This document shows, one piece after another, positions 3,385 through 30,200 of a stretch of DNA of 32,000 nucleotides (position 1 is the stretch's first letter; each line of letters opens with the position of its first letter). Below the pieces are notes generated by a model. It saw only the letters and a list, made by a program, of their open reading frames with translations, had not been told where the DNA came from and did no database searches. The DNA is taken from positions 60,001 through 92,000 of the forward strand of contig OY970170.1 of the NCBI GenBank assembly GCA_963706795.1, written 5' to 3'. This stretch comes from Candidatus Saccharimonadota bacterium (GTDB lineage: Bacteria > Patescibacteriota > Gracilibacteria > BD1-5 > UBA2023). Position numbers and translations under genes: made by a program.

Positions 3385-3388
3385 ATAA

Positions 3389-11583: not shown

Positions 11584-11626
11584 AGCACACAAGCAGATTT
11601 TTGTAGGTTTTATACGGATTATTGAG
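11584..11626. repeat. Possible degenerate fourth copy of the intergenic repeat family
   Basis: agcacacaagcag..atttttgtagg..atacgga..ttattgag shares blocks with copies at 18482, 19862 and 21599 but carries deletions. It lies about 35 nt beyond the zwf stop and is followed, on the minus strand, by the palindrome aggatacAgtatcct (11569-11583). Confidence 0.35.
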
Positions 11627-11663: not shown

Positions 11664-13046
11664 CTAAACATACCACTTCCGACCATCTCTTTCGAGTAGT
11701 ATATCGCTTTCTTTAGGTCCAGAAGTACCTTTTGGATATGGAAATATGATGGGGCAATCATTTTTGCAGTGGATAAGGTCATCGACGACCTTCCATGTTT
11801 CTTCGAGCATTTCCCAGTTAGTGAAGAGGGTTTTGTCACCGACAATACTATCTTCGATGAGTTTTTCGTAAGCTTCTTTGGAGCCAGGTTCGCTTTCAAA
11901 TTTGGATCGAACACGCTGGACCTCCTTGGAGTTGCCCATGACTTTGACATTAAAATGAATATCAATTCATTCATGGGGTTGAATCTCGAGAATGATTCGA
12001 TTTTTTGCTATGTGCCCGTATTTTTTAAAGAGAATTGGTGGAATTTCTTTGAATTCTACGACGATTCGCGTGATCTTTTTGTCGAGTGCTTTACCAGTTC
12101 GGAGATAGATAGGAACACCAATAAATGACCACGTTGCGACTTCGAGTTTTACGGCGACGAAGGTTTCGGTGCGGGAACCTTTGGCAATCTGACGCTCATC
12201 TGTGTAGCCTTCGTACTGACCAAAAACTGTGTTCGTTACATAATCCGGATCGAGCTTGAGCGACTGGAAAACCTTGAGTTTTTCTTGCTGAATAGCAGCA
12301 GCGTCGAGTGACGCGGGTGTATCCATTGTGACCAGCGACAAGACCTGAAACAAATGATTTTGAACCATGTCACGCATAGCTCCAGAAGTATCATAATACC
12401 CTCCACGATCCTCTACTCAGAGTGTTTCGGAGGCAGTGATTTGGATATTATCTATGTATTTGTTGTTCCAGATTGGCTCAAAAACCGTATTCGCAAAGCG
12501 GAAGGCTAGGATATTTTGAATCGCTTCCTTGCCGACATAGTGGTCGATTCGGTATATCTGTTTTTCGTGGAAAACTTCCGTGATTTTAGCATTGAGCTCT
12601 TTTGCAGAAGCAAGATCACGCCCAAACGGCTTCTCAAAAATGATCTTCACACGATCAGTTCATAGCCCCATTTGCTTGTATTCATCCACAAAACGTGTGA
12701 AGTGTTCCGGTGCGATCGAGAGATAAAAAATAATCTGCGAATCCTCCTTTGTGAGTCGGGCAATATCTGACTTGAGGCTCTGATAGTCTGACGACTGCTC
12801 AATATCCACCTTAGAATAATGCACCGTCTCAAGAAAGGCATCAAATACCCCTTGATCCTCAACAAATGGACCACTCTCTGCTCGGATGAATTCCAAAAAT
12901 TCTGCTCGTTTAAAGTCTCTTCTGCCCACTCAAATAATGTCGACCTGACTCGTCTTACTATTTTGAAATATATTGTAGAGAGCCGGAATAAGCTTTCGCT
13001 TTGCAAGATCGCCGGTTGAGCCGAATATGACAAATACTGTGTGCAT
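11664..13046 (-). CDS. zwf: Glucose-6-phosphate 1-dehydrogenase (460 aa)
   Basis: N-terminus [27 protein letters not shown] is the dinucleotide-binding motif. [11 protein letters not shown] is the active-site motif, and EKPFGRDL and [13 protein letters not shown] are also present. Four same-frame pieces are joined by TGA, e.g. II-TGA-VGRRDF at 12930-12932. Ends in TAG at 11666-11664. Confidence 0.92.
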
Positions 13047-13135
13047 GAAACAAAAATGAAATAACCGAGGATTGTATGATGCTCTGGGGATATTGCAAGT
13101 GAGTGCAAAAAGAATACTTATAGATTTAACACTTA

Positions 13136-14131
13136 TTAAAGCTTAGCCGCATCCAAGCCACTCTTCATGTAGCCCCGACAGTCTATCCGACCAATCGAGC
13201 GTTTATCCATATTTCACCCCTTCTTACCAGCTGAGTGATCGACTGACTGAATCTCTACACCTCAAATATGCTCTACCTTTCAGGCATGGTCTGTATGTCC
13301 GTGTACCACTCTATTAAACCCGAGCCCCTGAAGCTTGAGTGCGTCGTCTGCTGTAAGGTATTCGCGGTTCTCAGTATAGAGAAAAATATCGGCGATTCGT
13401 TGGTAATCGAGAGATGGCTCGATGCGTCGCATCAAGAGATCTCGCAATCATGTTTGATATGTCGTATTAATCCAATGGATGCCATGCTGACAAATCATAG
13501 CTGCCATTTCTGATGTGATATCAGTATGCACAAACAATGTATCATCTATATGTTCTGCGATTTTAAACTCGCACATATTCCCAAGCAGAGCAAGGCTGTC
13601 AGTACTTTCGTGCATTTTACTGAGTATCTCTCATCCACTTGGCAAGATCTCGTTGTATTCCTTTAATGAATCGATCTCTATTCATAGGTACTCGTATATA
13701 AACTCTACTATTCCGAGACCCTGATCATTGAGGGTAACATTTCTGATAGCATCGCGTTTCTTTGTAATTTCTTCGGGAGTAAAATGTGCATTTGCATGAG
13801 ATGGAAAAAACGCGACTGGTCTCTCCATAAGAAACGAGATAGCCATATCTTCATGATTACCAGCAAGTACAACAATCTCACCTCCGAGGGCATGGGCTTC
13901 TTTTTTGAGCCTGTTTAATTCACGCATGCACTGGAGACTGGTCGTACCGCGATCAGCAAGAATATCCCCTAAAAAAACTAGGCGCTTATTTGCTCATACC
14001 CAAGAGTTGAACTCATCAATTGCACCCAGCGATAGCAGATTAGCGTACATGATTTCAATATTTCCATGCAAATCACCCACTACGAGTACTTCTGTTGAGC
14101 GTGGTGTTTTTGCGGGTTGTGATTGTGGCAT
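13136..14131 (-). CDS. PPP-family metallophosphoesterase (Ser/Thr phosphatase or ApaH-like, 331 aa)
   Basis: The signature triad is present: VVGDLHGN, FLGDILADRG and LAGNHE, plus a downstream VHGHTD. The frame is continuous through TGA codons to TAA at 13138-13136. Confidence 0.8.
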
Positions 14132-14151
14132 CGTTCGTGCAGATGAGAAAT

Positions 14152-14745
14152 CTAATCATCCAACCCCTTCCCTTCCAAGATTTTTGGCACACCTTTCTCA
14201 ATCCTTGCCTCGCGAGTTTTGGATTGTTTGGCGCTCGAGAAATGGAGAAGATACGCCCTTTGTCGTCCTGGAGTCAGGGCTTCAAAGGCAGTTTTGAGGG
14301 CTGAGTTTTCTGCTAGTGCTTTTTGGAATTCCTCGGGAATGCTAAAGTCTTTGGTCTGTTTATAGTCTATTTTTAAATCTGCCTTTTCAACTTTTATGGC
14401 TTCGGAAATGTAGGATACGAGAGTAGACTCCATCTCAAGAATTTGCTGGATACTCGTGAAACGAATCTGGCGTCATGCTTGCACATTTTCTGTTTGCTGG
14501 ACGAGGATATTCGCAGGATCAGGAAGAAGAACGCCTTTAAAAAAATTAAGTGCACAGTATTCCTTAAACCCATGAATCAACACCACATTCCCTCCTTGGA
14601 ATGTATAACATGGAACACCCCATTTTAACTCTTCAGTGACCTCAGAATCAAGAACAATCATTCTGAGCTTTTTGACTTCCTCCTGCCACCTTTGCTCTTT
14701 TTTGAAATAAAAATCAACCTTAGGATTCATGTTATTAGCACTCAT
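14152..14745 (-). CDS. YdeI/OmpD-associated (DUF1801) family protein (197 aa)
   Basis: ORFs 14473..14745 and 14152..14433 share a frame and are joined by one TGA. Motifs: KVDFYFKK...KWGVPCYTFQGGNVVLIHGFKEYCALNFFKG and LKTAFEALTPGRQRAYLLHFSSAKQSKTREARIEK. Ends in TAG at 14154-14152. Confidence 0.8.
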
Positions 14746-14788
14746 AAGATGGAATTTTTAGATGCTTAAAAATCAGGAGGAAGGTAGT

Positions 14789-15746
14789 TTATTCTTGTAC
14801 GATTATTGCTACATTACCAGATTTGTGTCATTTTTCTACATAGGCATGAGCCTCGACAATTTGATCAAGGGTATATGTACGATCGATCACAGCTCTCATT
14901 TTGTTAGTCTCGATGAGTCATTCGAGATATTCCATGAGTTCGACAGTGAGTGTAAAAGCTCACATGAGCACTTTTCTTTTGCTGGTAATAGAGCCAAAGT
15001 CACTTGAACATATCACCTGGCATGGCAGCATTGAGCACGAGTGCTCAGGTTTCAGTCAGTGATTTCACTCCATCTGCAAATACCATCTTCCCAACACTAT
15101 CCATGACAATATCATAGACAACTCCGTCTCTTACAAAATGCTCTTTAGTGTAATCAATAACCTCGTCAGCACCGAGAGATTTTACCATGTCGATATTGGC
15201 TGTGCTACATACCGCGGTGACGTAGTTTCACATTGCCTTTGCTATCTGAACAGCAGCCGTACCTACCGCACCAGAGGCTCCGTAGATAAGTATTTTTTGC
15301 CCGCTTGTAATTCCAGCTTTTCTGAGGAAACCCAAGGCAGTAGTGCCTCCAAATGGTATTACCGCAGCTTCGACATGTGAGATATTTTTGGGTTTTATCA
15401 CGAGAGCACCATCCTCATTCATACACCTATATTCTGCATAGGTTCAAAAAGTAAGATCCGTATTTCCAAACACACTATCGCCTACTTTGAACTTAGTGAC
15501 ATCTTTTCAGATCTGTACAATCTCTCCAGAAAACACAACCCCGAGGATTGAATTTTTTGGCTTGCTGAAACCAAAGATGAGCCTCACTGCCCATGGATCG
15601 GCCTTTCGGATTCGGACCTCACCAGAATTTACAGCGGTAGCCATTATTTTGATCAGAACTTCGTTATTCTGAGGGATTGGAGTGGGCACTTCTTGTATCT
15701 CGAGAACTTCAGGAGCTCCATAGGCGGTACAGATAGCAGCTTTCAT
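14789..15746 (-). CDS. Zinc-type alcohol dehydrogenase / NADPH:quinone oxidoreductase (MDR family), interrupted by an apparent 1-nt frameshift
   Basis: [21 protein letters not shown]... and [21 protein letters not shown] (Rossmann GxxGxxG) are in one frame. The conserved C-terminus [64 protein letters not shown] (stop at 14791-14789) is in another. The span is 958 nt, which is 3n+1. Confidence 0.7.
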
Positions 15747-15794
15747 AATTGTTTGTTAAATATCTTCGGGGATCAGGTATGAGAAACGGGGGAA

Positions 15795-16529
15795 TTACAG
15801 AGCAATCAGAGAATACGTTCTAAGCACTTCTTGAAACCCGAAATCCTCCGCAAGTTTTTGGGAGATGTCATTGTCCGCATGTGCCCTCCATTGTGGAATA
15901 AATCACTTATCGGATATATCGTTTAGCAGCGATTTAATAACCTGTGTTGCATATCATTTCCCCTTTGCTTCAGGAAGAGTAATGATGCCAATATGTGCGA
16001 TGGTATCTTGTTCATCATCTCGTACATAGTTTCCAAGTGAGAGAATTTGTCCATCCGAGCGATAGGCAAAAAAGGTGTGGAATGGATTAGTGATATCCAT
16101 ACATACCATTTTTCGATCCTTCGAATCGCATGTGTTCATAAATGTTTCGTAGGCAGAAAGATCTGATTGTGTAAGCGCAGATACATTCGGTGAAGCTGGA
16201 AAAACTGGACTCTCAAATTGGTAATATGCCAATTGTGGACCATGTTTTTGAGTTATATCCATCGCAGCTCTGATGTTTCATTCGACATCGTCAGAGCCTG
16301 CCTCAAGTATCTCCGACACCCGTCCAAACATTTTTTCTGATACAGAAACTACCGTGCCACCATTTTGGTACTCAAGTACATAGATTTCGTTTTCGTTGTC
16401 TATCGGTTCTGGCACATCCTTGCGATGCAGAAAAATGGAAGTCTTTTTTTGATCAAAATCTTCGTCCGAACACCCAAGAAAGGTTTGCCAATAGTTTCGG
16501 ACAATATCGAGTTTTGGTGAGTTTTGCAT
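15795..16529 (-). CDS. GNAT-family N-acetyltransferase (244 aa)
   Basis: ORFs 16278..16529 and 15954..16262 share a frame. The acetyl-CoA motif LPEAKGK-TGA-YATQVIKSLL (GxG restored by Gly at 15954-15956) is followed by ...AEDFGFQEV. Ends in TAA at 15797-15795. Confidence 0.7.
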
Positions 16530-16631
16530 GGTAGCTACTATACCGAGCTTTGAGCTTATGAAAACAATAAACTATTTCTCGTCCCTCATCGGAATCACAT
16601 ATTGGATTAAATTAATGTCTATGAGTGATAT

Positions 16632-18359
16632 CTAAAACCCACTCTGCAAGTCAAGCATCTTTTTGTATTTTCAAGCATGGGCCACTAAGTCATTGTGGGA
16701 TCCCTGCTCCAAGATTTTGCCATCTTCGATATAAAAAATCACATCTGATTGTTTTACTGTTTGGAGGCGATGGGCTACAACAATGACTGTACGGTCTTTA
16801 AAGAGATTTTCTAGCGCTTCTGTAATTGTTTCTTCATTGATACTGTCGAGTGCCGAAGTAGGTTCGTCCAGTAGGATAATCTCAGGGTTTTTGAGCATGA
16901 TCTTGGCGATAGCAAGGCGCTGTTTTTGACCTCCAGAAAGCTTGATTCATCTTTCTCATATCTCAGTCTCGAGTTGGTTTTTAAATTCGAATACGAAGTC
17001 ACATTTGGCAAGTTTTATGACTTCTTGGATTCGAGATGGGAGCTGATCCGATAACAGTTCATCTTCGGAGAGCGCATACGTAAGATTTTCGAGAATGGTT
17101 CCATCAAAGATATTTGGCTCTTGTGTGAGATATCAAATATGTCGATAATAAGATTGAAGTGTGATCTCTGAGAGTTTTTGACCATCTACTGCAACGCTTC
17201 AGAAATTCGGATGAATATACCCTGCAATCAGCTTCATAAGGGTAGTTTTCCCGCCACCAGAAGGCCCAACTAGTGCGTATTTTTTGCCACCCGCTAGCGT
17301 GAGTGAGAATTCGTCAAATATTTGCTTGGTATTTGAATACGCAAATCCGAGTTTCTCAATTTGTATATCTCATCATTTACATACAAAGAATGGTAGATTT
17401 TCATGTTCTTGGATGAGCGGCGTATTATCCATCAGATCCAAGAGCTGATCTACCCAAACCATGTAGCGATTATAGCTATTCATAGATCGTTGAATATTCC
17501 AAAAATACTTATAAACAGTCATGGTAAGACCGGATAATAAGACTAAGGTAGCGATCGTATAATCGCCGCGCATGACTCCAATTCCAATAACGAGATAGAT
17601 TCCTGCCTGAACAAGCATCATCATAATAGATGCCGCACCATTGAATGCATCTATAATTACATTGGACCGGATCAATAAATTCTTGATTGAAGTAATAAAT
17701 ACTTGCGAGAGAGAAAGCTCATGCTCAAGCTTGTTATTTTGAAAGATCTCAAATTTGGACATGATGATCTGAGTTCTTTTTCGTTGAAGTTCTGTTACCA
17801 TTTTTCACGCCTCTGTTCTGGAGTCGTGGACTTTACTTTGTGCATAAGCCATGAGCCCTACCGTCACCGCAAAAAGGAGGAGCAAAACCAAAGAATACAC
17901 CACCGGAACAGATACAAAAATAATCACGAACCCGATCAAGATAGTGAGAACTTCAGCAATAACATGAGGAAATGTATCATAGACAATATTGATCCATCAT
18001 TCTACCCCTCTTGTGACAATGCTATTTATTTTGCCCGTTCAGATCGATTCGGTGCGATTATTATCGAAATGGAGATATTTTTTAAAAAATTCAGCAGATA
18101 AATAATGATCTAAATAACTCATCAAGGTATAGCCCGAAAAGGTCGCAGCAATAGCATACCCCTGCTGAATCAGCTTAGCAAGAAGCAGCGCAAAAGCACC
18201 AAAAATAACTCCTTGTTTGTCTCATCGAACAATTGCAGCAATAATCCATGCAGCAATCCAAGGCTCAAAAACACCCTGAAGTGAGTCATAAATTTTTTCT
18301 CCGAACCAAATATACCAATGCCCTTTGACGAGCTTGATAACCCCAAGGAGTCGCTTCAT
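16632..18359 (-). CDS. ABC exporter, fused permease/ATP-binding protein (MsbA/MdlB-like, 575 aa)
   Basis: The N-terminal half is hydrophobic (6-TM type). The C-terminal NBD carries Walker [11 protein letters not shown], signature [13 protein letters not shown], Walker [13 protein letters not shown] and H-loop VVAHRL. The TGA at 16671 is read through to ...[16 protein letters not shown] (16634-16632). I scanned the frame and found no TAA or TAG. Confidence 0.9.
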
Positions 18360-18481
18360 TGTTGTGAGGCGCATGGTTGTTTTTATATCGAAAATACTAA
18401 CGACAGGATTGTATGTACAAGCGAGATGAAGTCACAAAAAAACCGCTATTTTCTTGGTGAAGGCGATTATTTGAAGGTTCT

Positions 18482-18554
18482 ATTGAAATCGAACATGGTA
18501 GGGCACAATCATAGTGCTGCGAACTTCTTCAGGAGAGAATTTGAGTGGGATGAG
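18482..18554. repeat. Intergenic repeat family, copy A
   Basis: attgaaatcgaacaTGGTAGGGCACAAtcatAGTGctGcTGCGAACTTcTTcaGGAGAGAATTtGAGTGGGATGAG aligns with copies B and C in the same orientation. It lies between the ABC exporter start (18359, minus) and the deaminase start (18696, plus). Confidence 0.6.
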
Positions 18555-18695
18555 CGCCAAGGCGGACTATTGGATAATTGAACTCTTCTATTATAATCCT
18601 CACAATTCTAAGCTCTCTATGAAGCTAGAAAGAGATCAGATTGGTTTGCACAGCACGTCTCGTATCCGTAGAATGCGCGCATATTAAAACAAGTC

Positions 18696-19193
18696 ATGCC
18701 CAACTATAAGGAAGGTCTCGATGACCATGCAAACATCCTGCAATTCGTAGAAAAATCTCTGCAAAATGCGCGAAAATCTCTAGATCAGTGAGGCTTCCCT
18801 GCAGGTGCAATAGTCGTAAAAAACGGCAAGATCGTCGGCGAAGGAATCAGTATGGGCAATAAACTCCACGATCCCACCAGTCACGGCGAGCTCTCAGCAA
18901 TACGCGATGCATGCAAGAACCTCGCAACATCGGATCTTTCTGACTGCACGCTCTATTCCTCTATGGAGCCATGCATGATGTGCCTCAATGCCGCAATGTG
19001 GAGCTCGGTACCAAAGGTGATTTTCGCCTGTGGGAAAAATAGAGTTTCGCCTGACTATTACGGAGGAAGTTACGAAACTTCGAGTGTAAATGCGATGTTT
19101 GCACGTGCTATCGAGATAGTGCAGATTCCTGAAATGGAGGAATCTTCTGTAGAACTTGTTCGGGAGTGGGAGAAATCGTGGGGAGGTGAGTAA
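18696..19193 (+). CDS. CMP/dCMP-type zinc deaminase, guanine-deaminase/TadA-like (165 aa)
   Basis: The zinc-ligand motifs DPTSHGELSAIRDAC (H-x-E) and MEPCMMCLNA (PCxxC) are present. The N-terminal piece joins through LDQ-TGA-GFPAGAIVV. Ends in TAA at 19191-19193. Confidence 0.8.
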
Positions 19194-19393
19194 TGCAGCC
19201 CTCGGCTGAGTATTCAAAACCAATATCTAGACCGAAACCAGCATGCGGTAAAAATATTGTCTTTGCCCGCCTTTCGTTTGTCTTTGGAGAAAGAACGTTT
19301 ACCCGTAGAGTGAAGAGATGCTGGATATTGACCTGCTGAACCACATTGCAATGCGGTTTCGTACTCGGCTATATATGATAATCCCTTCATTTT

Positions 19394-19750
19394 ATGGATG
19401 CCTATAGTTCACCAAGTACGAAACCGCTGTATCGCGGTACGCAAATCGTTTGGTACATTCTCGGAATTATTGAGGCACTTCTCGCGTTCCGATTTGTACT
19501 GAAGTTTCTCGGAGCAAACCCCACGGCGGGCTTTACGAGTTTTATCTACGGAGCAACGCAGATGTTTGCTGCCCCATTCCTCAACGTTTTCCGGATTACA
19601 AAGATAGAAGGTAGTGTTTTCGAATGGACCACCATCCTAGCGATGCTCGTATATTGGATAGTCGCGTATGCAATTATTAAGCTGTTTCTCATGGGAAGAA
19701 CAGTCTCCACACCAGAGGCGGCAGCAAAGCTGAGTTCGCAGGAGAAGTAG
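19394..19750 (+). CDS. YggT-family small membrane protein (118 aa)
   Basis: An intact ORF with no TGA. The pattern IVWYILGIIEALLAFRFVLKFLGANP...FIYGATQMFAAPF with two TM helices is typical of YGGT repeat proteins. Ends in TAG. Confidence 0.75.
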   Translation: MDAYSSPSTKPLYRGTQIVWYILGIIEALLAFRFVLKFLGANPTAGFTSFIYGATQMFAAPFLNVFRITKIEGSVFEWTTILAMLVYWIVAYAIIKLFLMGRTVSTPEAAAKLSSQEK

Positions 19751-19760
19751 AATTAAGTTT

Positions 19761-19804
19761 ATACTAAAAACGGTTACCACTCGAGTGGTAACCGTTTTTA
19801 GTAT
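19761..19804. terminator. Bidirectional intrinsic terminator (44-nt perfect palindrome)
   Basis: atactaaaaacggttaccactc|gagtggtaaccgtttttagtat is a perfect inverted repeat centred on ctcgag, with an A-run on one side and a T-run on the other. It sits between the convergent YggT gene (plus) and ABC-F gene (minus). Confidence 0.75.
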
Positions 19805-19861
19805 GTGTTCGAATATAACGATTCAATATCCTTAAAATATTACTTGTAAGAGATGTTTGTA

Positions 19862-19930
19862 ATTTGAATTGGTGGAGCACAAGAGTGGAGTTGCGAACTT
19901 TTTTGGGAGAGAATTCGGAGTTGTATTGAG
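19862..19930. repeat. Intergenic repeat family, copy B
   Basis: atttgaatTGGTGGAGCACAAgAGTGGAGTTGCGAACTTTTTTGGGAGAGAATTCGGAGTTGTATTGAG. It ends 10 nt from the ABC-F stop codon (19940-19942) and lies about 55 nt from the 19761-19804 palindrome. Confidence 0.65.
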
Positions 19931-19939
19931 AAAAGTAAG

Positions 19940-21391
19940 TTATGCTTCTCCATTCTCCAAGTCAATCCTTCAAGTACACTGCATTTTTTCTATGAAATAC
20001 TCGTCGTGAGAAACTATGAGCATGGGAATTCCTAAATCAACAAGTATATCTTCTATCTGTTCCCTGAGGAATATATCGAGATGGTTTGTTGGCTCATCCA
20101 GAATGAGGATATCCGGACGGTTCGACAGCAAGATTGCGAATTCGAGTCTCCTCTGCTCGCCGTAGCTGAGATTGCTTGCCTTCGTATTCACCGCCGAAGC
20201 ATCGAAGAGGAATCGTGCAAGGATAGAACGTTCTTCATTCGCACCTGCAATGGAAAGGCTGCGGAAATTTTCGATAACCGTTTTCTTGCCATTTATGAGA
20301 GAGAATTGGGAAAGATACCCAATGTGGGTATCTGGTCGGATGAGAATGGATTCGGACATCTCGCCGCTTTCGGAAATAATTGTCCGCAGAAGCGTACTCT
20401 TTCCGCTGCCATTCATTCAACATACTCTCAGGCGGTCTGAACCGGAAAGTCGGAAACTGACGTTTTCAAAAATGGTTTTTGAAGCGCCACTTCCTGAGAC
20501 AAAGCCAGCCGATAGTTCTTTTACAGTAAGAATAGTTCATTTTCATTGCGGAAGCTCGATCCGATATGATATTTTCGGATCTTCTATAGGCATAGGAATG
20601 GCGCTCTTAAGTCGCTTTTCAAGCGTCTGTTTCTGCCGCATGACTCGGTCGCTAAAGCGGAATTTCGGATGAAATTCGTGCTCACGAAGCCAGAATTCCA
20701 GCTCAACGATCTCAGCTTGTTCATGGCGATAGATAGACATTCTTCGATCAAAACTCGCCTCTCGTGCAGAGAGGAATTCACGATACGAACCAGTATAAGT
20801 CTCGATTGTGTGATCTTGGGTAATTTCCAAAATGCAGTTTACTGAGCTTGCAATGAGTTTACGATCGTGAGTCACTATGAAAACGCTTCATCCAAAACTC
20901 GCAATAAAAGCGGCAAGGAAATCCTGCCCCTCTTGGTCTAAATGATTCGTCGGCTCGTCGAGAAGCAAGATAGTCGGCTCGTCAAGTATTATTCGTGCGA
21001 GCCTCAGTCGCATTTTTTGTCCACCGGAAAGACTGGAAATCTGCTGATTGCAAAGGGGTAAGTCGAGTCATACGACATCGAGTGCTTGTTCTGCATGGTA
21101 AAACATCCATTCTTCGGTGAAGGCTGAGGCTAGGTACTCACCAATAGTCTCAAACTCATCAGAAAATGTTGGGTCTTGCTCGAGATACCCAATAGTTTCT
21201 CATTGGATGGAAACTATTCCCTCACTCGGAATAATCTGCTTCGCTATGATTTTCAGAAGCGTAGACTTCCCTGCACCGTTCCTTCCAACGACGGCTACGC
21301 GCTTTTTTGATTTTGAATCGAGGGAAAAAGAAAAACCTCGAAAAAGAGTATCGCCCCCATGGTCGTGAGTGACGTCTTGGATATGTAACAT
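19940..21391 (-). CDS. ABC-F family ATPase (two tandem ABC domains, no TMD, 483 aa)
   Basis: Domain 1 has [24 protein letters not shown] and [11 protein letters not shown]. Domain 2 has [15 protein letters not shown] (the first Gly of Walker A is encoded by TGA at 20417-20419), [12 protein letters not shown] and [11 protein letters not shown]. The TGA at 19970 is read through to TAA at 19942-19940. Confidence 0.85.
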
Positions 21392-21535
21392 GGTTGATAA
21401 AAGCTAAAAGAAATGGATCTTTTAGCGAATATCTCAGTTACAAGGAACCTGATGGTGGTAAGTAGTCTGGTAAGTCATATGCTGGATTATACGAAAAACA
21501 GAATTTATGGCAAACACGCATAATACCCGAACAGA

Positions 21536-21581
21536 CTCTAAAAAAGAGCATCAATCCTGGAATTGATGCTCTTTTTTAGAG
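21536..21581. terminator. Bidirectional intrinsic terminator-like hairpin
   Basis: ctctaaaaaagagcatcaat-cctgga-attgatgctcttttttagag has a 20-bp perfect stem including A-run/T-run arms. It sits between the ParB-like gene and the ABC-F gene, next to repeat copy C. Confidence 0.65.
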
Positions 21582-21598
21582 CGCTGCCCAGCAATAGG

Positions 21599-21668
21599 AT
21601 TCAAATTGGTAGAGCACAATAGTGGAGTTGCGAATTTTTTTGGTGAGAATACGGAGTGGGATATTGAG
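21599..21668. repeat. Intergenic repeat family, copy C
   Basis: attcaaatTGGTAGAGCACAAtAGTGGAGTTGCGAATTTTTTTGGTGAGAATACGGAGTGGGATATTGAG. By eye it is about 80% identical to copy B, with small indels. It lies about 45 nt beyond the ParB-like gene stop (21713) and about 17 nt from the 21536-21581 hairpin. Confidence 0.65.
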
Positions 21669-21712
21669 GGTTATTTGCGTTAGAGTATGCAGATTTTAAA
21701 TCTGAACGGAGA

Positions 21713-22096
21713 TTATCCTTGAATTTCTGAGATTCTCGATCGTGGAATAATTCTCACCTGTACTTCTTTTTTTCCCAGCAGATAACTTTTCGCGAGTCTA
21801 TGGAGACCATCGAGCAAAAGTAGTCTTCCTTTGTTAGGCATGAGGTCAAGTGGATAATTCAGGTCAGCATCAAGGATTTTTTTCCAATGGTCGTCTTCCT
21901 TGTATGGATTCACCAGCAGTTCCCAGACAGTAAGATTCCAATCATCGGTTCATTTCTGATCTAAGAATGGTATATCGAAGTGCCACAAAAGTGCCTCAAT
22001 GGGAATAGAAACAACCGGCTCATCAAGAGTCCAGACTTTTTTATAATCCCAAGAGAAGTCGAATCCGACATCTTTGATAATCTGTGGTTTTTCCAT
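21713..22096 (-). CDS. Small ParB/Srx-fold (ParB-like nuclease domain) protein (127 aa)
   Basis: ATG at 22096-22094 (MEKPQIIKDVGFDFSWDY...), one internal TGA (21950-21952), TAA at 21715-21713. The motif GRLLLLDGLHRLAKSYLLGKKEVQV fits the ParB N-terminal-domain DGxHR core. This is a motif-level call only. Confidence 0.55.
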
Positions 22097-22279
22097 GTAA
22101 AAAAATTACTGGAACGATTAAATGCCTCTCGCGCTTATTTGCAACAAAAATATCTGCCAAATAAATGCTTATTACTAAAAGCAATTCACGAACCAGTTTT
22201 TAGATATCGCTCAAATGCACGTACTCATCACCTTATCCTACTAACAAGAGAAAAGAACGGAAAAAACCAGGAATTAAAA

Positions 22280-22312
22280 GCCCTCCTACACTCTTACAGA
22301 GCTTTGGAGGGC
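22280..22312 (-). terminator. Putative terminator downstream of tmRNA
   Basis: On the minus strand GCCCTCC...GGAGGGC forms a 7-bp GC-rich stem with a 19-nt loop, followed by TTTTAATT. It lies about 80 nt past the tmRNA CCA end. Confidence 0.4.
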
Positions 22313-22392
22313 ATTCTTCGCTATCTAGAGCAACGAAATTGCACGTCAATCGCAGAAGCGGCGTGCCATTCGTAGCTCGTGAGAGCGAAGAA

Positions 22393-22839
22393 TGGTGGAG
22401 ATGACGGGAATCGCACCCGTGTCCAGTGGGTCGCATCAGGCATATCTACTTCTATAGGCGACTTCGATTACGCACGAACGATAGGAAGGGCCGAAGAGCC
22501 GAGCGCGCGTATAGTTTTATGGTCAAATCAGATCCGAAAACCATAACAAATGGATCTGACACGAGACGGTGATAAGACATAGGTACCCATCCAAATCCCT
22601 ATGAATTTTCGCCAAGACCAGCTGGTCGGGCTCCGTTAGAAACGGAGGGCGAGTGTTGAAGCTAAATTAAATTAGGCAGCAACGTACGCAGGTGTCATTG
22701 CATTCTTGAATGCAGCGAGTCCGCGAGCAACACGAGTGTTTGCAGTTGTTTTTGTTCGTGGTGTTTGCGGCGGTCACGAACACCCGCCGAGAAGCATGCA
22801 AGACGAGAAAATCCCACTGTAGAATTCTATATCATCCCC
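22393..22839 (-). ncRNA. ssrA: tmRNA (transfer-messenger RNA), about 447 nt
   Basis: On the minus strand the 5' GGGGATG pairs with the 3' CATCTCC-A-CCA, including the G3:U70 wobble that is the AlaRS identity element. The T-arm is ACGGG-TGCGATT-CCCGT and CCA is encoded. An internal tag frame GCA AAC ACT ... GCT GCC TAA (22743-22672) gives ANTRVARGLAAFKNAMTPAYVAA*. Confidence 0.88.
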
Positions 22840-22911
22840 ACTCGCCAGAGTGTAGTAAAAATCATCAAAAAATCAATTGCGAAAGCCTATCTTATCGAGT
22901 ACGCTACCGCC

Positions 22912-23775
22912 ATGAAATTTTCTCGGATTTTCGCTCTCGTCCTGGCGCTCGCTCTTCCTGTAGCGGCATTTGCAAAAACTACTATTCAAATCTCCCCTTC
23001 CCTGCCGGCTGGTCGATATGACCATCCGATCTATGTGGGACTTACTGCATCTGATCCTGCAGCACAGATCTGGTATACGTGTAAGCGTAATGGAACGCCT
23101 TCGGATCTACTCAAATATGAGAAGCCGATTTTGCTCTCTAAATCATGCGCGCTGATATATTTTGGATATGTCACCACCGAGCAAGAATCCAAGATCGAAC
23201 GCTCGGATTACACGATTTTTTATTCTGACGCAATTAGACTCGAGACAAATGCTGATATTTTGTCGCTTCATAATATTGGTACAGGAACCGTGGATGTTGG
23301 GGGTTGGGGTGTAATTGCGGGTACTGGGTCGGTGACAATACCGGCAGGAACGAGTATTTTGCCATGAGAGCATTATTCTCTCGGAAAGGTTTCGCCAAAT
23401 TCGTATGCACTCACAAGTCCTGAAGGATATGTCAAAAACGAAGTAGCAATCACTTTCGCAAAGCCAAAAATCCTCGCGGAGAGTGTCTCGAAAAAGTCTG
23501 CAAATCTCGCGCCTAGGCCCACTGCCAAAACAACAGATACCAAGCCAACTCCCCCACCAGCAAATCTCGTAGATACGAGCACTGGCAATATCGTACCTCA
23601 AAATATTGCTACGACGGCTACAGGTCCAGCGCCAACGCCAAAAACAACAAGTACTACCGATAGCCTCAAGGCCTCTTCTCTCGAATCAAAAAATACAAAT
23701 ACCACACTCCCGATCGTTATTATTGGAGTGCTCGTGGTTGGTGGTATTGGATTTCAACTTTTAAGGAAGAAATAA
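22912..23775 (+). CDS. Secreted, C-terminally anchored surface protein with CHB_HEX_C-like and lamin-tail (LTD) domains (287 aa)
   Basis: Signal peptide MKFSRIFALVLALALPVAAFAKTT. PAGRYDHPIYVGLTASDPAAQIWYTCKRNGTPSD fits the chitobiase/hexosaminidase C-terminal domain pattern. LSLHNIGTGTVDVGGWGVIAGTGSVTIPAGTSILP-TGA-EHYSL fits the LTD pattern. A Pro/Thr-rich linker follows, then the TM tail LPIVIIGVLVVGGIGFQLLRKK. Ends in TAA at 23773-23775. Confidence 0.75.
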
Positions 23776-23827
23776 AAATCACTCGGTTTTTTGCCAATGG
23801 AAGCGGCTTCTGCTATGCTTGGAATAT

Positions 23828-26800
23828 ATGGCCGATCCAAAAGAACAAGCCCCTGCTCAAGCCAAAGCAGCTGCCCCAAAAAACGAACTTATCAATTTTA
23901 AAGAACTCATCGCCTGATCCGATGGGGATAGTTCTGTGTCTGATAAAGAGGCAGTCGTAATTGCATGCTTTGATAATGATAAATTTATACAGCTCTCACC
24001 CGAGCAAAAAGCACGATGGGTAAAGGAAATGGTTCTTATTCTCAAAAACTTCCATATTGAGAAGCGTGAAATTCAGGCCTTTTGTGATATTGCTCGCAAG
24101 CAGATCAAAAACGAGCTCAGCCAGGGAAGCGAATTTATAAACGATCTGACGGACAAGATGGGTCGAAGCCACTGCGTTACTCTCAAAAATACAGATTATT
24201 TTCCAACGAAGGCGGACGATATTCAGCGAGTTGCGGGATATTTTCGTCATATTTATAGCGATCCAGATCAGCGCGAAAAATATGGGAATTACCTCCAAAA
24301 TAATCCTTCTGAAAAAGAAAAGTTTCTGAAGTATTGGGCAGATGCAGACAATCTCACGCGCTATTATCTCAAGGCAAACAAAGAGCCTCAGATCATCGAT
24401 AATATCAACGCATTTGCAGCCGGTCTTCAGGCTCAAAAAACAGTCGCCAAATCCAAAGAAAAAACCGAGATAAATCCTAAAGAAGTCGTAAACAAGGCTT
24501 CAGAACTCATACCAAGCGCAGAGTGAGTGAGTCTCTTGAGTAAACATCTCTCGGTGGATTCGAATGTGCATCTTGCACTCGTTGAGAAGCTCTCAAACAA
24601 CCCAAATCTCATCTCAAAATATCTCACGCACTTTGCAGCAAATGGGAAGGCTCGTGATATCATGCTCGCCGAAACACGTGGCAATGTCGCGCTTGCTTCA
24701 CTCGAATCTGCGATCTGGAAATCGCTTGCGAACTATGGAGTCATCGCACCAAAAAATCTCGGACTGAGTGGCATTGATGCGAAGGGAACGATGATCTTGA
24801 TGTCCAAAAATATCATCCAACGACATTTTAATCTCGGAGAAAAAGTTCCACATCTCGAATTTGCCTTTGCGAAGCTTCGGGCCGTACATGGCAATTTTGC
24901 GACAAATGAAGATGCAAAGAAGGCGATCATCGAAACTTTTGGTGGTAATGCCGAACAATTCAGCAAAAACACCAAGCTTCAAGCCGAGATTCTTGCGGTT
25001 CGTGGTGTACCGTCGGTTGAGCCAATTCAATCATATATTGAAGAACTCCACCGAGGTAAAAAAGACCTCCATCGCACTATCCAAACAGGTGATGCTGGAG
25101 CGATCAAAAAGATCCTCGATGGACAAGATATAGACACGGCGCGCATCGCTGCACTCACAACACCATACGATCTTGAGACGAATCGTATCTCCGTTGCACG
25201 TAGCAAGGAAGCAGGTGGAGGATTTGTTTATCAGAGTGAATTCGCCTATATCTCAGAAGTTCGCAAGCAGTCCTTCCGCGAAATCAACCTCGTCAACCTT
25301 GAGCACTACATTGCCTTTGTGAAGGCAAAAGGTCAGAATGTCGACACGGCGCTTATGCACCTCGTGGGAGTTTCGGATTCGACGGTGTGAGGCATTGCAA
25401 AGCTCGCGGCTCTCGGGAACCAGATTGGCGTGGACGTAATAACCGGCACAAATACACCAAGTGATCGCAAAGAACTTCAGGGGCTATTTAAGACACATTT
25501 GCTTCCGCATTTTAAACCGCTCGTTGAGCAATTGCAGATCAATGCGATGGGGAGTGAGCTCGTAAAAATTATTGGGAAGGTTACGGGAACACCACTTCCA
25601 GCTCAGACTGAACGTGCGATTATTGCAGCACTCGAATCCAAAAATGGTCTCCGCCGTACGAATTCCGAATACGTAAAGATCATCCTCGAAAATGTATCTG
25701 ATGAATGACATCGAGCACAGATTTTGAGAGAATTAGCGCATTCTCGCACATCTCTCGATGTTGCAACTGCGCCGGCCTGAGTCAAAAATGCAAACAAAAA
25801 TCTCTCACCAGAGATGACAAAAGCACTCGAAGAAGCTAAACTCAAAACCAAAGGAAAGGCCTTTGAAATCTTGAGTGCGGAGGATATAAAAATCCTCACT
25901 GAGATGACGCGGGATCCTAAAAAATACAACCTGAGTCCGACCGATCTTGCTGCGATCCAAAATCTCATCAAGCATTGGAAACTTCAGTCAAATCTTCGTA
26001 ATAATGCGAGTCTCGCGGCTTCTTCTGGAGCAATTGCCAAGGCAAAGACCACAAAAGACGGAGTCATGCTCGCGGATGCACTCGACCTGCGTACACAAAA
26101 CCAGATCGAAGCCGAAGGCGCAGCCAAGCGCCGCGCACAATTGACCGAAGGCATGACCGCCGCACAAATCCTAGAGCAGAGTGAAAAAAACAAGGATTTT
26201 AAAGCACGAATCACCGCTCTCGATAACGCTGAATCCCAAGCAAAAGCCTCTATCGAATGAATAGATCGCGAAACCAGCGGCGTGCTCCGAAGCGCTTCAC
26301 GATCAGAAACCGCGCAGCACACAATGCTCTTTGGTGGCTATGGCGCAGGGAGTTTTACAGAAGTCTCATACAGCTATGACAAGGGTTGGGAGAATACTAC
26401 CGAATCCGTGAGTGTCCGTCGCCGATGAATGACTCAAGATGCTGATACGCCAGACAAAAGATCTGCGGCCGCAAACGAAGAATGAACACGAGGAGTAAGA
26501 TGAATGTCTGGAACTCCAACATTTGTCAGTCTCGATACAGCCGAAAGCCGCGACTTCCGTAAGCCTATTTCGCTTGATCCAGATGGACACTTCGTACTTA
26601 GGCAGTGAGCAAAGAGCGGGACGATATTTTTGCAGATTGATCAGAACGAACGTATCAGTATTCCAAAATCACAGGCCAATATCGCCCTCTCCCTCATCGA
26701 GATTGCTCAAAAGATCGGTGAAGTCGACATGATCCGCAATATCGGACCAATGATTGCACAGATGAGCGCGCACGGCATCTTTGCAAATCTAAAAGATGGC

Positions 26801-27037
26801 ATGTCCAATCGCGAGGAGCTCGATGTCATGAAATATCTCGTACAACTCTATGGCGTACAAGACGTCAATCTCGAGGCAACCGATCCGACAATGCTCGCAA
26901 ATTCGATTAAGCTCAACTCGCAGAAAAAAGAGAATTCGTTTTATGCTCAGGGACTCAAAAAATGAATCCTCGACAAGGACGGCAAGCTCAAGGTCGCCAA
27001 CCTCGAAAAGCAGATGCAGATGCTCAAACAAGCATAA
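23828..27037 (+). CDS. Large hypothetical protein (1069 aa, about 11 in-frame TGA=Gly), no domain recognised
   Basis: Five ORF-track pieces (23936.., 24527.., 25430.., 25814.., 26630..) share one frame (start coordinate mod 3 = 2). All gaps, translated by hand, contain TGA but no TAA or TAG. ATG at 23828, TAA at 27035-27037. I see no signal peptide or TM segment. The protein is Ala/Lys/Glu-rich and looks helical. Confidence 0.75.
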
Positions 27038-27040
27038 TTT

Positions 27041-27080
27041 AAAAAATAACTCAGATTCATCTAAATCTGAGTTATTTTTT
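27041..27080 (+). terminator. Intrinsic terminator after the 1069-aa ORF
   Basis: aaaaaataactcagatt-catcta-aatctgagttatttttt has a 17-bp perfect stem with an A-run/T-run. It starts 4 nt after the stop codon. Confidence 0.75.
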
Positions 27081-27125
27081 AAATTTTTGACCACGAAGCA
27101 CCACAAGTTTTATAAAAGTTTTTGG

Positions 27126-27230: not shown

Positions 27231-30200
27231 ATGGCTAAAAAGCAAGATTCTGTCTTGTCAAACTCAGAAGCACTCAAGCAATTGGGTGAAGTGTATGAGA
27301 TTGAAGGACGGTACTTCTTCACGGATGATCGATCCATCCTTGAACTCCCGAACCTCATCGAAGTTCAGCTTGATAGCTACCACGATTTTTTGCACAATCG
27401 TCTTGATAAGGCTTTCCGCGAAACTTTCCCTATTTCTGACTTCTCTGGCGAGAAGATTGAGATTCATTACAAGAGTCTTTTCCTCGACGAGCCAAAGTAC
27501 TCAGTAGGAGATGCTAAGCGCAAGAACCTCAATTTTGAAGCACCCCTCAAGGTTCGCCTCGAGATGCTCAACAAGGAGTCAGGTGAAATCAAAGAACAGG
27601 ATGTTTATATGGGTGGAGTTCCTCTCATGACTGAGAAGGGAACATTCGTAGTCAATGGTATCGAGCGTGTTATCATCAATCAGATCATCCGATCGACTGG
27701 TGTTTTCTTTGTTCCAGATCCAAAAAATCCTGGAGCATACGCGATGAAGATTATCCCACAAAAGGGTTCTTGGTTCGAAATCGAAATCGAGAAAAAGGGT
27801 ATCATCAACGTCAAGATCGACAAGAAGCGTAAAATTCCAGTTACGGTTCTTCTTCGTGCGTTTGGACTTGAGTCTGACAGCGATATCCTCGCGGCATTCA
27901 AGGGAGACAAGGACATGATTGCAAAGCATGTTGGACCAACTCTCGAAAAGGACAAGACAAAGACTCGTATGGAAGCTCTCTACGCGATCTACAAACTCCT
28001 TCGTCCAGGAGATCTCGGAACGGATGAACGTGTTATGGATCTCTTCCAGGCTACATTCTACGATGTAAAGAAATTTGAGCTCGGAGAAGTAGCTCGTCTC
28101 AAGATGGACCGCAAGACTGGAAAGAACACTCCATACGAAGGAGATGCTCGATTCCTCTCTTCTGATGATCTCGTTGACGGTCTTAAGTACCTCATGGGAC
28201 TTATGTTCGAGCTTCCAGGGCACACTTGGGATGACATCGACCACCTCGAAAACCGACGTGTTCGTTCGGTTGGCGAACTCGTTTATGACAAAGTAAAGGT
28301 TGGTCTTGCCCGCATGGAAAAGATCGCTAAGGATCGTATGACGATCGTTGAGCTTGCTGATGCTACCCCAGGTACATTCATCAACTCACGTCCGATTGTT
28401 GCCGTTCTCAAGGAATTCTTTGGAACGTCTCAACTCTCACAGTTCATGGATCAGAGTAATCCTCTCTCAGAACTTGCCCACAAGCGACGTATTACTGCTC
28501 TCGGAACCGGAGGTCTCACTCGTGAGCGTGCCAGCTTCGAAGTTCGTGACGTTCACCAAACACAGTACGGTCGAATCTGTCCGATCGCGACTCCAGAAGG
28601 ACCAAATATCGGTCTCGTACTCCACCTCGCAAACTTTGCTCGTATCGACAAGCATGGATTTATTACAACTCCATTCCGAAAGATCGGTCATACTGCAAAA
28701 AATGATGGTACTTCACCAATTGGTCGTATCACTCTTGATGACATCCTCGATGACAAGGGTAATGTAGTTGTTGCCGAAAAGACAAAGATGGACGCAACAC
28801 ACGCAAAACTCCTCAAGGACAAAGTCAGCGCAGCGGAAGTCGAAGTTCGTGGTTACCTCACTCTCGATTACGAGTATTTTGATGCGTACCAGGAGCGAGA
28901 ATTCGTTATTGCCGAAGCTAATGCCAAGGTCGATGACGAAGGAAACTTCGCCGAAACTCGTATCTCTGCACGTAAGAACTCTGAGCCTACTACCGAGTAC
29001 GTTCGTGAGATTACACATATGGACATCTCTCCAAAGCAGACGATGTCGGAGTCAACTTCACTCATCCCCTTCCTCGAACACGACGACGCGACACGTGCCG
29101 AAATGGGAACGAACATGATGCGACAGGCAGTTCCACTCGTACGAGCTGAGTCTCCAGTCGTTGGTACTGGTTCTGAGCGTATGATCGGAGAAGGATCTGG
29201 TTACGCCATCAAGGCAGAAGAAGACGGGGAAATCATCGGTGTCGATGCAAAGCATATCTCAGTTCTCTACAAGTCAGGAAAGAAGGCGCTCTACGAGCTC
29301 CGCACATTCGAGCGATCAAATCACGATATGATCGTCCACCAGAAACCACGTGTTTCGACTGGTGAAAAAATCGAAGCAGGAAAGATTCTCGCTGACGGTC
29401 AGTCAATCGACAATGGAGAACTCGCCCTCGGACGAAACCTCGTTGTAGCCTATATGCCTTGGGGTGGTTATAACTTTGAAGACGCGATCATTATCTCATC
29501 ACGTGTGATGGAAGAAGATCACTTCACGTCAGTCCACATCAACGAATACGTTATGGACGTTCGAGAAACAAAACTCGGACCTGAGCAGACAACAAACGAC
29601 ATCCCGAACGTTTCTTCTACAAAACTCAAGGATCTCGATATTGACGGTATTATCCGTGTTGGTGCCTACGTTCATGGTGGTGATATCCTCGTTGGTAAGG
29701 TTACTCCAAAGGGAGAAATCGAACTCTCTCCAGAAGAGCGTCTCCTTCGAGCGATTTTCGGAGATAAGTCTAAGGACGTAAAGGATTCCTCTCTCGTTAT
29801 GCCTTCTGGATCAGGAGGTAAGGTTATTGGAGTACACATCCTCCGCCGTGAAGACGGAGACAATCTCGCGACTGGAGTATTTAAGCAGGTGAAGGTCTAT
29901 GTTGCTCAGACTCGCAAGATCGAAGTCGGAGACAAGATGGCCGGACGTCACGGAAATAAGGGTATCGTTTCTCGCATCGCTGCGATCGAAGATATGCCAT
30001 TCCTCGAAGACGGAACACCAGTAGATATCATCCTCAATCCACTCGGAGTTATCTCACGTATGAATATCGGACAGATTCTCGAATCTCACCTCGGTATGGC
30101 AGCGCGCAAGCTCGGTATCAAGATCGCTACACCAATCCTCAATGGAGTTTCTGTTGAAAAGATCGGCGAACTCATGGACCTTGCAGGACTTCCAAACGAT

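Follow-up and report, generated by a model that had tools for sequence, protein, structure and literature searches.

Three direct copies of a short intergenic repeat at a plastic locus downstream of the tmRNA gene in a Gracilibacteria genome

Why should one short sequence recur three times, always in the same orientation and always between genes, within a few kilobases of a transfer-messenger RNA (tmRNA) gene? This is the question raised by a 32,000-nt stretch of contig OY970170.1 (positions 60,001 to 92,000; assembly GCA_963706795.1) from a Gracilibacteria genome, which we refer to, at its full length, as the window. The element in question is about 70 nt long, and its three occurrences are called here copies A, B and C. 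Our analyses established it as a real, small, unstructured three-copy repeat that is private to its lineage and belongs among the short intergenic direct repeats found at plastic loci. As to how it arose, we favour, with a probability of roughly 35%, the explanation that insertion or reshuffling of gene blocks behind ssrA, the tmRNA gene, left the copies as direct repeats in the DNA at the block joints, and that they are now passively transcribed as untranslated region (UTR). Overall, they resemble joints of recombination or duplication more than they do a novel RNA element.

The three copies lie on the minus strand at 18480-18555 (A), 19855-19931 (B) and 21591-21668 (C). Repeat finding and a profile search of the window showed that they are direct repeats in a single orientation and that each of them is intergenic (3/3), although intergenic sequence makes up only approximately 9% of the window. 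An nhmmer profile built from the three copies and run on the window recovered them with E-values of the order of 1e-20 to 2e-21 (A, 1.3e-20; B, 1.8e-21; C, 3.1e-20) and gave no other match below E = 2. Furthermore, the pattern GCACAAN{1,4}AGTGN{1,4}TGCGAAYTTYTT matched exactly these three copies in the window versus nothing in 100 dinucleotide shuffles. The three clear, same-orientation copies described in the first-pass annotation of this DNA were thereby confirmed, and its core consensus proved correct upon alignment. A fourth, weaker copy that it had placed at 11584-11626 did not hold up: the profile failed to see it at E<=100, and its gapped Smith-Waterman scores were 20-33 versus 38-50 for unrelated background windows. 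All three copies fall within 3.2 kb, and the profile search found none in the other 29 kb. Likewise, the sub-blocks TGGTrGrGCACAA, TGCGAAyTTyTT and GGnGAGAAT are confined, within the window, to the three copies. B and C are the closest pair (84.6% identity over 65 nt in pairwise alignment), and A is the most diverged copy (71% identity with B, 75% with C); the corresponding values are 81% (B-C), 66% (A-B) and 69% (A-C) when 68 aligned columns are compared. Since the sequences flanking the copies are unrelated to each other, the copy boundaries are sharp. An internal tandem half-repeat of approximately 30 nt was not significant, as 66, 55 and 8 of 200 shuffles reached the value observed in A, B and C, respectively (not significant in A and B, marginal in C). 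The GC skew does not switch at the locus and gives no sign of a replication origin or terminus, and a role as a site of that kind was rejected.

To place the copies among genes, the genetic code has to be considered. Open reading frames (ORFs) called with the standard code are fragmented, and full-length genes are obtained once TGA is translated as a sense codon (e.g., 19940-21391, 11664-13046, and 23819-27037). Four of the seven TGA codons in the ABC-F gene align with invariant glycines in 20 homologues, which indicates that the genome uses code 25, in which TGA encodes glycine, as Gracilibacteria do. With TGA read as glycine, the stop codons previously assigned to the ABC-F gene (19940), the ParB-like gene (21713), and zwf (11664) come out correct. 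The rpoB gene (27231-30770) contains zero TGA codons, and its homologues carry the annotation Candidatus Gracilibacteria.

The tmRNA gene (22393-22839, minus strand; Rfam RF00023, 82.3 bits, E = 1e-30) lies 0.7 kb from the repeat cluster, and all three copies are situated downstream of it and share its orientation. Following the minus strand from there, a gene for a ParB/Srx-like protein of 127 amino acids (aa) (21713-22096, minus strand) lies between the tmRNA terminator and copy C. The stop codon of this gene (21711-21713) is followed after 45 nt by copy C, which in turn precedes, by 17 nt in the minus sense, a perfect palindrome at 21536-21581 (20-nt arms, 100% complementary; 6-nt loop; A/T feet), which is predicted to be the terminator following the ParB/Srx-like gene and copy C. 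This hairpin is followed by a promoter-like site, TTGCCA-16-TATAAT (21513-21486, minus strand), putatively that of the ABC-F gene (19940-21391, minus strand; 483 aa, seven TGA=Gly codons), and the ABC-F gene is bracketed by C and B. The edge of copy B is approximately 10 nt from the ABC-F stop codon (19940-19942), and the copy is 57 nt upstream, again in the minus sense, of a second perfect palindrome (19761-19804; 44 nt, 23-nt arms, 100% complementary, with A-tract/T-tract feet). This second palindrome dominates the fold of 19750-19945, is conserved in the related contig L013, and is predicted to be a bidirectional intrinsic terminator common to the ABC-F gene on the minus strand and YggT (19394-19750, plus strand, 118 aa) on the plus strand. 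YggT and a cytidine/tRNA-type deaminase (18696-19193, plus strand) form the block that is bracketed by A and B. Copy A occupies a 336-nt divergent intergenic region between the start of an ABC exporter (16632-18359, minus strand) and the deaminase start at 18696, is 123 nt upstream of the exporter start, and has no adjacent hairpin. The exporter start at 18359 was taken from a gene call on contig L006, which is 100% identical to the window. Both palindromes are real, as first described, and copy A does sit 5' of the exporter on the minus strand. On that strand, B and C each have a stop codon before them and a perfect palindromic terminator after them. The order stop codon, element, palindrome thus holds for two of the three copies and not for three of four, as originally proposed, because 11584-11626 is not a copy.

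Perfect palindromes of 44-50 nt with A-tract/T-tract feet occur at 19761-19804, 21536-21581, and 27036-27085, and apparently represent the style of bidirectional intrinsic terminator used by this genome. These palindromes coincide, exactly or nearly, with breaks in Logan contigs, both from the same strain and from relatives; for example, L006 ends at 19790 and L014 begins just past the equivalent of 27085.

The element has neither a conserved fold nor a conserved frame. When the copies were folded singly on both strands, z-scores ranged from -1.1 to +0.8, no better than shuffles, and in contexts of 190-240 nt the terminators alone formed structure. RNAalifold on the three copies gave -2.15 kcal/mol for the minus strand (5 invariant pairs) without meaningful covariation, three sequences having little power in this respect, and -4.39 kcal/mol for the plus strand, where two pairs showed double changes, each of them broken in the third copy. 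The small CAC-(4-7 nt)-GTG hairpin highlighted in the first-pass annotation is present as letters but amounts to merely 3-4 bp, with no fold better than shuffles. Rfam reported nothing on the copies at the gathering score, nor at E<=10 (18000-23200, and each copy alone), the sole match in the window at the gathering score being the tmRNA, and ARAGORN found no tRNA on the copies. A tRNA- or tmRNA-like reading of "GGTAGAGCAC...GTTGCGAAT" was ruled out by these negative results together with the insignificant similarity to the tmRNA 3' end described below. Regarding coding potential, two co-phased frames yield similar-looking peptides, yet compensating +1/-1 indels separate the copies, and no start or stop codon is common to them. 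Substitutions are spread evenly over codon phases between A and B (7/4/4) and between A and C (6/4/3); in the first block (first 45 nt) of B and C, four of the five changes fall in one codon phase (p ~0.14), which is suggestive at most. The implied peptides matched no Pfam family, and tblastn gave no match outside the copies in the window or in related loci. These results support a non-coding element, in line with the initial view that a conserved peptide was unlikely, and a coding or pseudogene reading was rejected for both co-phased frames on account of broken frames, flat phase, and lack of homologues.

Across the loci and collections searched, the element is restricted to this lineage. A pattern scan of GTDB species genomes returned five single matches in unrelated taxa, which is about the chance expectation; two different patterns gave no match in JGI metagenomes, two scans of IMG/VR gave no copy, and no copy was found in phage and plasmid collections. 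The nhmmer profile detected no copy in approximately 156 kb of non-redundant related Gracilibacteria loci, including approximately 38 kb from a relative whose rpoB is 94% identical (GCA_049315825.1; Logan DRR424548 and SRR13740837; contigs L009, L013, and L014), and other Gracilibacteria loci revealed no analogous intergenic repeat families. The paper on a curated Gracilibacteria genome (PMC6851277) describes long stem-loops flanking a gene as well as a coding PTD repeat, and nothing resembling the element.

The locus has three features that went beyond the first-pass annotation: TGA is read as glycine, a tmRNA gene lies at a distance of 0.7 kb, and gene content varies between close relatives. 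Downstream of the tmRNA gene, the window carries the ParB-like and ABC-F genes, L018 (84% rpoB identity) a PemK toxin and an ABC ATPase, and L015 (85% rpoB identity) an ATP-grasp gene. The relative with 94% rpoB identity keeps zwf (96% aa identity) and YggT (93% aa identity) but has an ADH-like gene and a MerR gene in place of positions 13105-19178 of the window (exporter, copy A, and deaminase). Contig L013 (Logan DRR424548; YggT 93% identical) is colinear with positions 19179-19876 of the window at 86.7% nucleotide identity, covering the YggT block, the spacer, and the hairpin, and colinearity ends at 19876, 15 nt inside copy B. The contigs of rpoB relatives (83-94% identity) end at, or diverge before, the repeat locus, and the loci reached via YggT homologues (81-83% identity) have an unrelated gene context. 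Because no orthologue above 46% identity was found among 5.8 billion proteins, the ABC-F gene is regarded as behaving like an accessory gene; the orthologues at 46% identity are not syntenic.

Several properties of the proteins in this region were observed alongside. The best NCBIfam match of the ABC-F protein is "ribosomal protection-like ABC-F" at 353 bits, slightly below the 380-bit cutoff, and the gene may be an acquired antibiotic-resistance-type gene. More than 100 proteins match YggT at 75-83% identity, including some that their sources name as other groups of the candidate phyla radiation (CPR) (Parcubacteria, Doudnabacteria). For the neighbouring surface-type proteins encoded at 22765-23775 and 23819-27037, identity is just 57% and 44%, respectively, even against the relative whose rpoB is 94% identical. 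These comparisons suggest that evolutionary rates are very uneven or that YggT was transferred horizontally.

Given this setting, we propose that the copies mark joints between gene blocks. Read along the minus strand, two blocks share the order "hairpin - (promoter) - gene - repeat": that of the ParB-like gene, placed after the terminator of the tmRNA gene itself, and that of the ABC-F gene. The block of deaminase and YggT also has a hairpin at its start and a repeat at its end, but its genes are on the plus strand. One non-coding, unstructured sequence of approximately 70 nt would have diverged into three direct copies, and, by recombination through the repeat sequence, blocks composed of "terminator hairpin - (promoter) - gene(s) - repeat" would have been added or reshuffled. 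Campbell-type or site-specific recombination would leave one copy on each flank of an inserted block, and the outcome would be the ABC-F gene between C and B and the deaminase and YggT genes between B and A. The copies would be carried passively, in the 3' UTRs of the ABC-F and ParB-like genes and in the upstream region of the ABC exporter, and might stay substrates for deletion or excision between them. We infer both the origin by recombination and any recombination activity at the present day. Such a history would account for the sharp boundaries, the single orientation, the bracketing of accessory genes, the lack of a fold or frame, the restriction to one lineage, and the break of colinearity within copy B.

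A weak lead may further tie the copies to the tmRNA 3' end. Their last letters on the minus strand are ...GCTCCACCA for B, ...GCTCTACCA for C, and ...GCCCTACCA for A, and the tmRNA gene ends in ...TCTCCACCA; the short forms of the copy ends (...CTCCACCA, ...CTCTACCA, and ...CCCTACCA) resemble this tmRNA end. The terminal octamer of the tmRNA is matched at 8/8 positions in B, 7/8 in C, and 6/8 in A, and a terminator hairpin follows the tmRNA gene at once, likewise B and C. At the junction within copy B, the relative (L013:6787-6798) reads TGGTGGAAATGA, which agrees with the final 12 nt of the tmRNA gene at all but one position (11/12) and is in the tmRNA orientation; contig L013 ends 21 nt past this sequence, its final letters being ...TGGTGGAAATGAGGCAACTAAGGATTTAATACT. 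A short att-like core at a tmRNA-like end is a possible reading of these resemblances. As for the tmRNA gene itself, it was missed by ARAGORN, its tag reading frame ends in ...AFKNAMTPAYVAA, and two hairpins (22394-22312 and ~22312-22275) come after it.

A number of observations weigh against recombination joints. No integrase, transposase, or recombinase domain was found in any protein of the window. A single junction, that at B, is comparable with a relative, and in the 189-nt spacer there a random breakpoint would hit the element approximately one third of the time; the other block boundaries of the relative (~13105 and 19179) are not at a repeat. YggT, one of the bracketed genes, is a conserved housekeeping-type gene and not an obvious cargo. 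Moreover, B and C are merely 81-85% identical, so any event was not recent, and the retention of the copies could equally reflect function. The tmRNA lead is subject to similar doubt: similarity between the whole element and the tmRNA 3' end was not significant (61-279 of 500 shuffles reach it), and the octamer TGGTGGAG has three exact occurrences in the window.

Among the alternatives, the one that survives best is a functional RNA, which we regard as a serious though doubtful candidate. It holds that the element is a single-stranded, C-rich module of approximately 70 nt on minus-strand transcripts, bound by Rho (as a Rho utilization, or rut-like, site), by an RNA-binding protein, or by a small RNA (sRNA), and that it would tune termination, read-through (in the case of C, upstream of the ABC-F gene), or mRNA stability. 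In a variant of this idea, the copies would form a family of 3'-UTR-derived sRNAs with a common seed that use the downstream terminators. Lying between a stop codon and a strong intrinsic terminator, B and C should be transcribed, and the copies match the orientation of the flanking minus-strand genes. Weak promoter-like sites on the minus strand are present upstream of A (18619-18590) and C (21739-21712), and none is present upstream of B. In B and C, 72 nt of plus strand contain 24 G and 5 C (hence 24 C and 5 G on the minus strand), a G/C asymmetry that ranks in the top 0.4-1% of 70-nt windows, and the minus-strand RNA of both copies is essentially unfolded (B, -3.4 kcal/mol; C, -2.4 kcal/mol). 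The minus-strand RNA of B and C is thus a C-rich, G-poor, unstructured tract with the composition of a Rho loading site, located in transcribed UTR just before a terminator, and in this respect it resembles rut sites and the C-rich single-stranded seeds of 3'-UTR-derived sRNAs. Copy A has this composition only weakly, its skew being ordinary (top 11%). In addition, the segment UAUUGUGCUCUA of copy C can form a duplex with the 5' arm of the terminator that follows it (-11.0 kcal/mol, a value that 13 of 500 shuffles reach). The layout resembles an anti-terminator placed ahead of the ABC-F gene, and ABC-F genes are a class known to be controlled by leader attenuation.

Against an RNA module stands the absence of conserved structure, covariation, and an Rfam match already described. 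The claim of the first-pass annotation that the element could be a 3'-UTR or sRNA module holds in that B and C are in what must be minus-strand 3' UTR; the fold z-scores, covariation, and Rfam results lend no support to a structured RNA or sRNA. The position relative to genes is inconsistent, with two copies in a 3' UTR and one in a 5' region, and there is nothing downstream of B. The pairing with the terminator has no counterpart in B, where 229 of 500 shuffles reach the observed value, and A has no terminator at all; anti-terminator pairing with the downstream hairpin, marginal in C alone, was accordingly rejected. Rut sites, which are C-rich, G-poor, unstructured RNA tracts of approximately 70-80 nt, are defined by composition and not by conserved sequence; a rut site would not require the 85% sequence identity observed here. 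The seeds of 3'-UTR-derived sRNAs usually target Shine-Dalgarno sequences. A Shine-Dalgarno-like GGAG motif was found in none of 19 genes checked, in the 30 nt before the ATG (e.g., 18666-18695 and 21392-21421), so a C-rich anti-Shine-Dalgarno seed has no obvious target, is unlikely, and was rejected. Finally, the element is absent from every related locus examined. Promoter motifs were considered as well: a sigma-70-like match inside the element is weak and confined to copy A, for which reason a sigma-70 promoter within the element was rejected, and by eye no sigma-54, extracytoplasmic function (ECF), or boxA pattern is conserved across the copies.

A more specific version of the joint hypothesis, which we consider unlikely, is an integrase-less accretion system downstream of ssrA, in which single-gene modules, each with a terminator and promoter of its own, would be stacked at a site of approximately 70 nt ending in a tmRNA-like ...CYCYACCA core by a recombinase acting in trans. 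Direct repeats (att sites) reportedly bound islands and tandem island arrays at tRNA and tmRNA genes, and accretion of integrase-less cis-mobilizable elements (CIMEs) is said to occur in Streptococcus ICESt1/3. Like att repeats at tmRNA islands, the copies are direct, lie downstream of the tmRNA gene in its orientation, bracket accessory-type blocks in a variable stretch, and have no RNA structure, and one of them contains a break of colinearity. Unlike those repeats, the element does not appear to owe its body to the tmRNA 3' end, the match being at most 8 nt, and the window has no integrase. The blocks here span 1.4-1.7 kb, one of them carries the housekeeping-type YggT, and the copies are 66-85% identical. 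By analogy, the element would work most like island-bounding direct repeats or integrase-less cis-mobilizable modules, yet no clear identity block with the target gene and no integrase were found. The layout in which a site follows each of two same-strand genes, giving gene-plus-site modules, is also reminiscent of integrons, whose attC sites of 60-140 nt at the 3' ends of cassettes have RYYYAAC/GTTRRRY cores, form an imperfect palindrome, and have intI nearby. The element differs in having no such cores, no imperfect palindrome, and no bottom-strand fold; there is no intI in the window, and the cassettes here have their own promoters and terminators.

It is improbable that the element is a miniature mobile element that hopped locally, resembling miniature inverted-repeat transposable elements (MITEs), repetitive extragenic palindromic (REP) sequences or bacterial interspersed mosaic elements (BIMEs), or representing a solo insertion-sequence end. 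The copies are indeed short, intergenic, and sharply bounded, and two of them sit beside palindromic hairpins. No terminal inverted repeats, target-site duplication, or internal palindrome was found, though; as distinct from MITEs, the ends of B and C are not complementary and the flanks have no duplicated bases, and the half-repeat within the element was, as noted, not significant. The adjacent hairpins are mutually unrelated in sequence, and the third hairpin (27036-27085) occurs without the element. Neither a transposase gene nor a gene for a REP-associated tyrosine transposase (RAYT) is present in the window, and no further copies were found elsewhere in the window, in relatives, or in the public collections searched. 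The REP and BIME sequences of enterobacteria are placed between stop codon and terminator; REPs are folding, imperfect palindromes, present as hundreds of dispersed copies and linked to RAYT. The element is similarly short and extragenic, and it occurs in 3' UTRs near terminators, co-transcribed with the upstream gene; it differs in being non-palindromic, non-folding, and known as three clustered copies in 32 kb. The suggestion of a REP-like element made in the first-pass annotation is unsupported, because the searches revealed neither a palindrome in the element nor dispersed copies of it.

Slimmer still are the prospects of a DNA binding site, whether an operator or a site of nucleoid or partition type, at which a sequence-specific protein would co-regulate or organize the locus. 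Within the window, the conserved blocks are found in the three copies alone, A and C are approximately 86-90 nt upstream of promoter-like sites, and the ParB/Srx-like gene is adjacent, all of which would suit such a site. On the other hand, A and C face in opposite directions relative to the promoters near them, B is without a promoter that it could serve, and 70 nt is long for an operator. The element has no dyad symmetry and no significant internal repeat, and the 127-aa ParB/Srx-like protein has no recognizable DNA-binding domain. This protein contains a DGLHR motif, and its sole match is to the phage family phrog_17560 (function unknown; E = 1.8e-8), with no Pfam or NCBIfam match and no relative in a protein scan of IMG/VR.

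We see very little room for decayed coding remnants or a small ORF, the candidate peptides being LVEH(N/K)SGVANFFG (plus strand) and PKKFATPLLCSTN (minus strand, sharing its frame with the upstream stop codons). The shared codon phase of four of the five B-C substitutions in the first 45 nt would fit this idea, as would the minus-strand frame of B, which continues the ABC-F frame. That phase bias is not significant and is absent from A-B and A-C, and the indels break every frame. Further, the plus-frame ORF of B extends for 98 codons antisense into the ABC-F gene, the ORF of C crosses the terminator palindrome, and the homologues of this ABC-F are shorter than it, not longer. Finally, a strict island model, in which the copies are displaced tmRNA 3' ends from serial integrase-mediated insertions, fits their place downstream of the tmRNA in its orientation, their ...ACCA ends, and the terminators that follow B and C, but it is essentially refuted for the body of the element, with the terminal 8-12 nt left as a possible core, and was rejected, because similarity to the tmRNA 3' region is not significant, the octamer is not rare, and the copies are far more alike mutually than any is to the tmRNA, which would not be expected from independent decay; the copies also gave no tmRNA or tRNA covariance-model match at E<=10 and no ARAGORN match, and the window has no integrase.

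At the far end of the window from the tmRNA gene, three tandem paralogues of 520-560 aa with leucine-rich repeats of the ribonuclease-inhibitor type (Pfam LRR_1) are encoded on the minus strand at 150-1721, ~1846-3519, and 3389-4951. They are followed by an 852-aa AAA_5/STAND-like ATPase at 4972-7530.

On present evidence the practical value of the element is mainly that of a marker of a plastic locus. Were it a linear RNA signal instead, it would be among the first cis-acting UTR motifs described in the phylum. If the accretion system proved true, it would be a novel type of array, in which accessory genes, for example ribosomal-protection-type ABC-F genes, are carried as cassettes in a code-25 CPR bacterium. 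If the copies are recombination joints, as we favour, they would illustrate a way for a very small, recoded Gracilibacteria genome to acquire and lose accessory genes beside its tmRNA gene without obvious mobile-element machinery. The accessory genes concerned include a resistance-type ABC-F and an ABC exporter, and such a mechanism would be useful for understanding genome plasticity in CPR bacteria.

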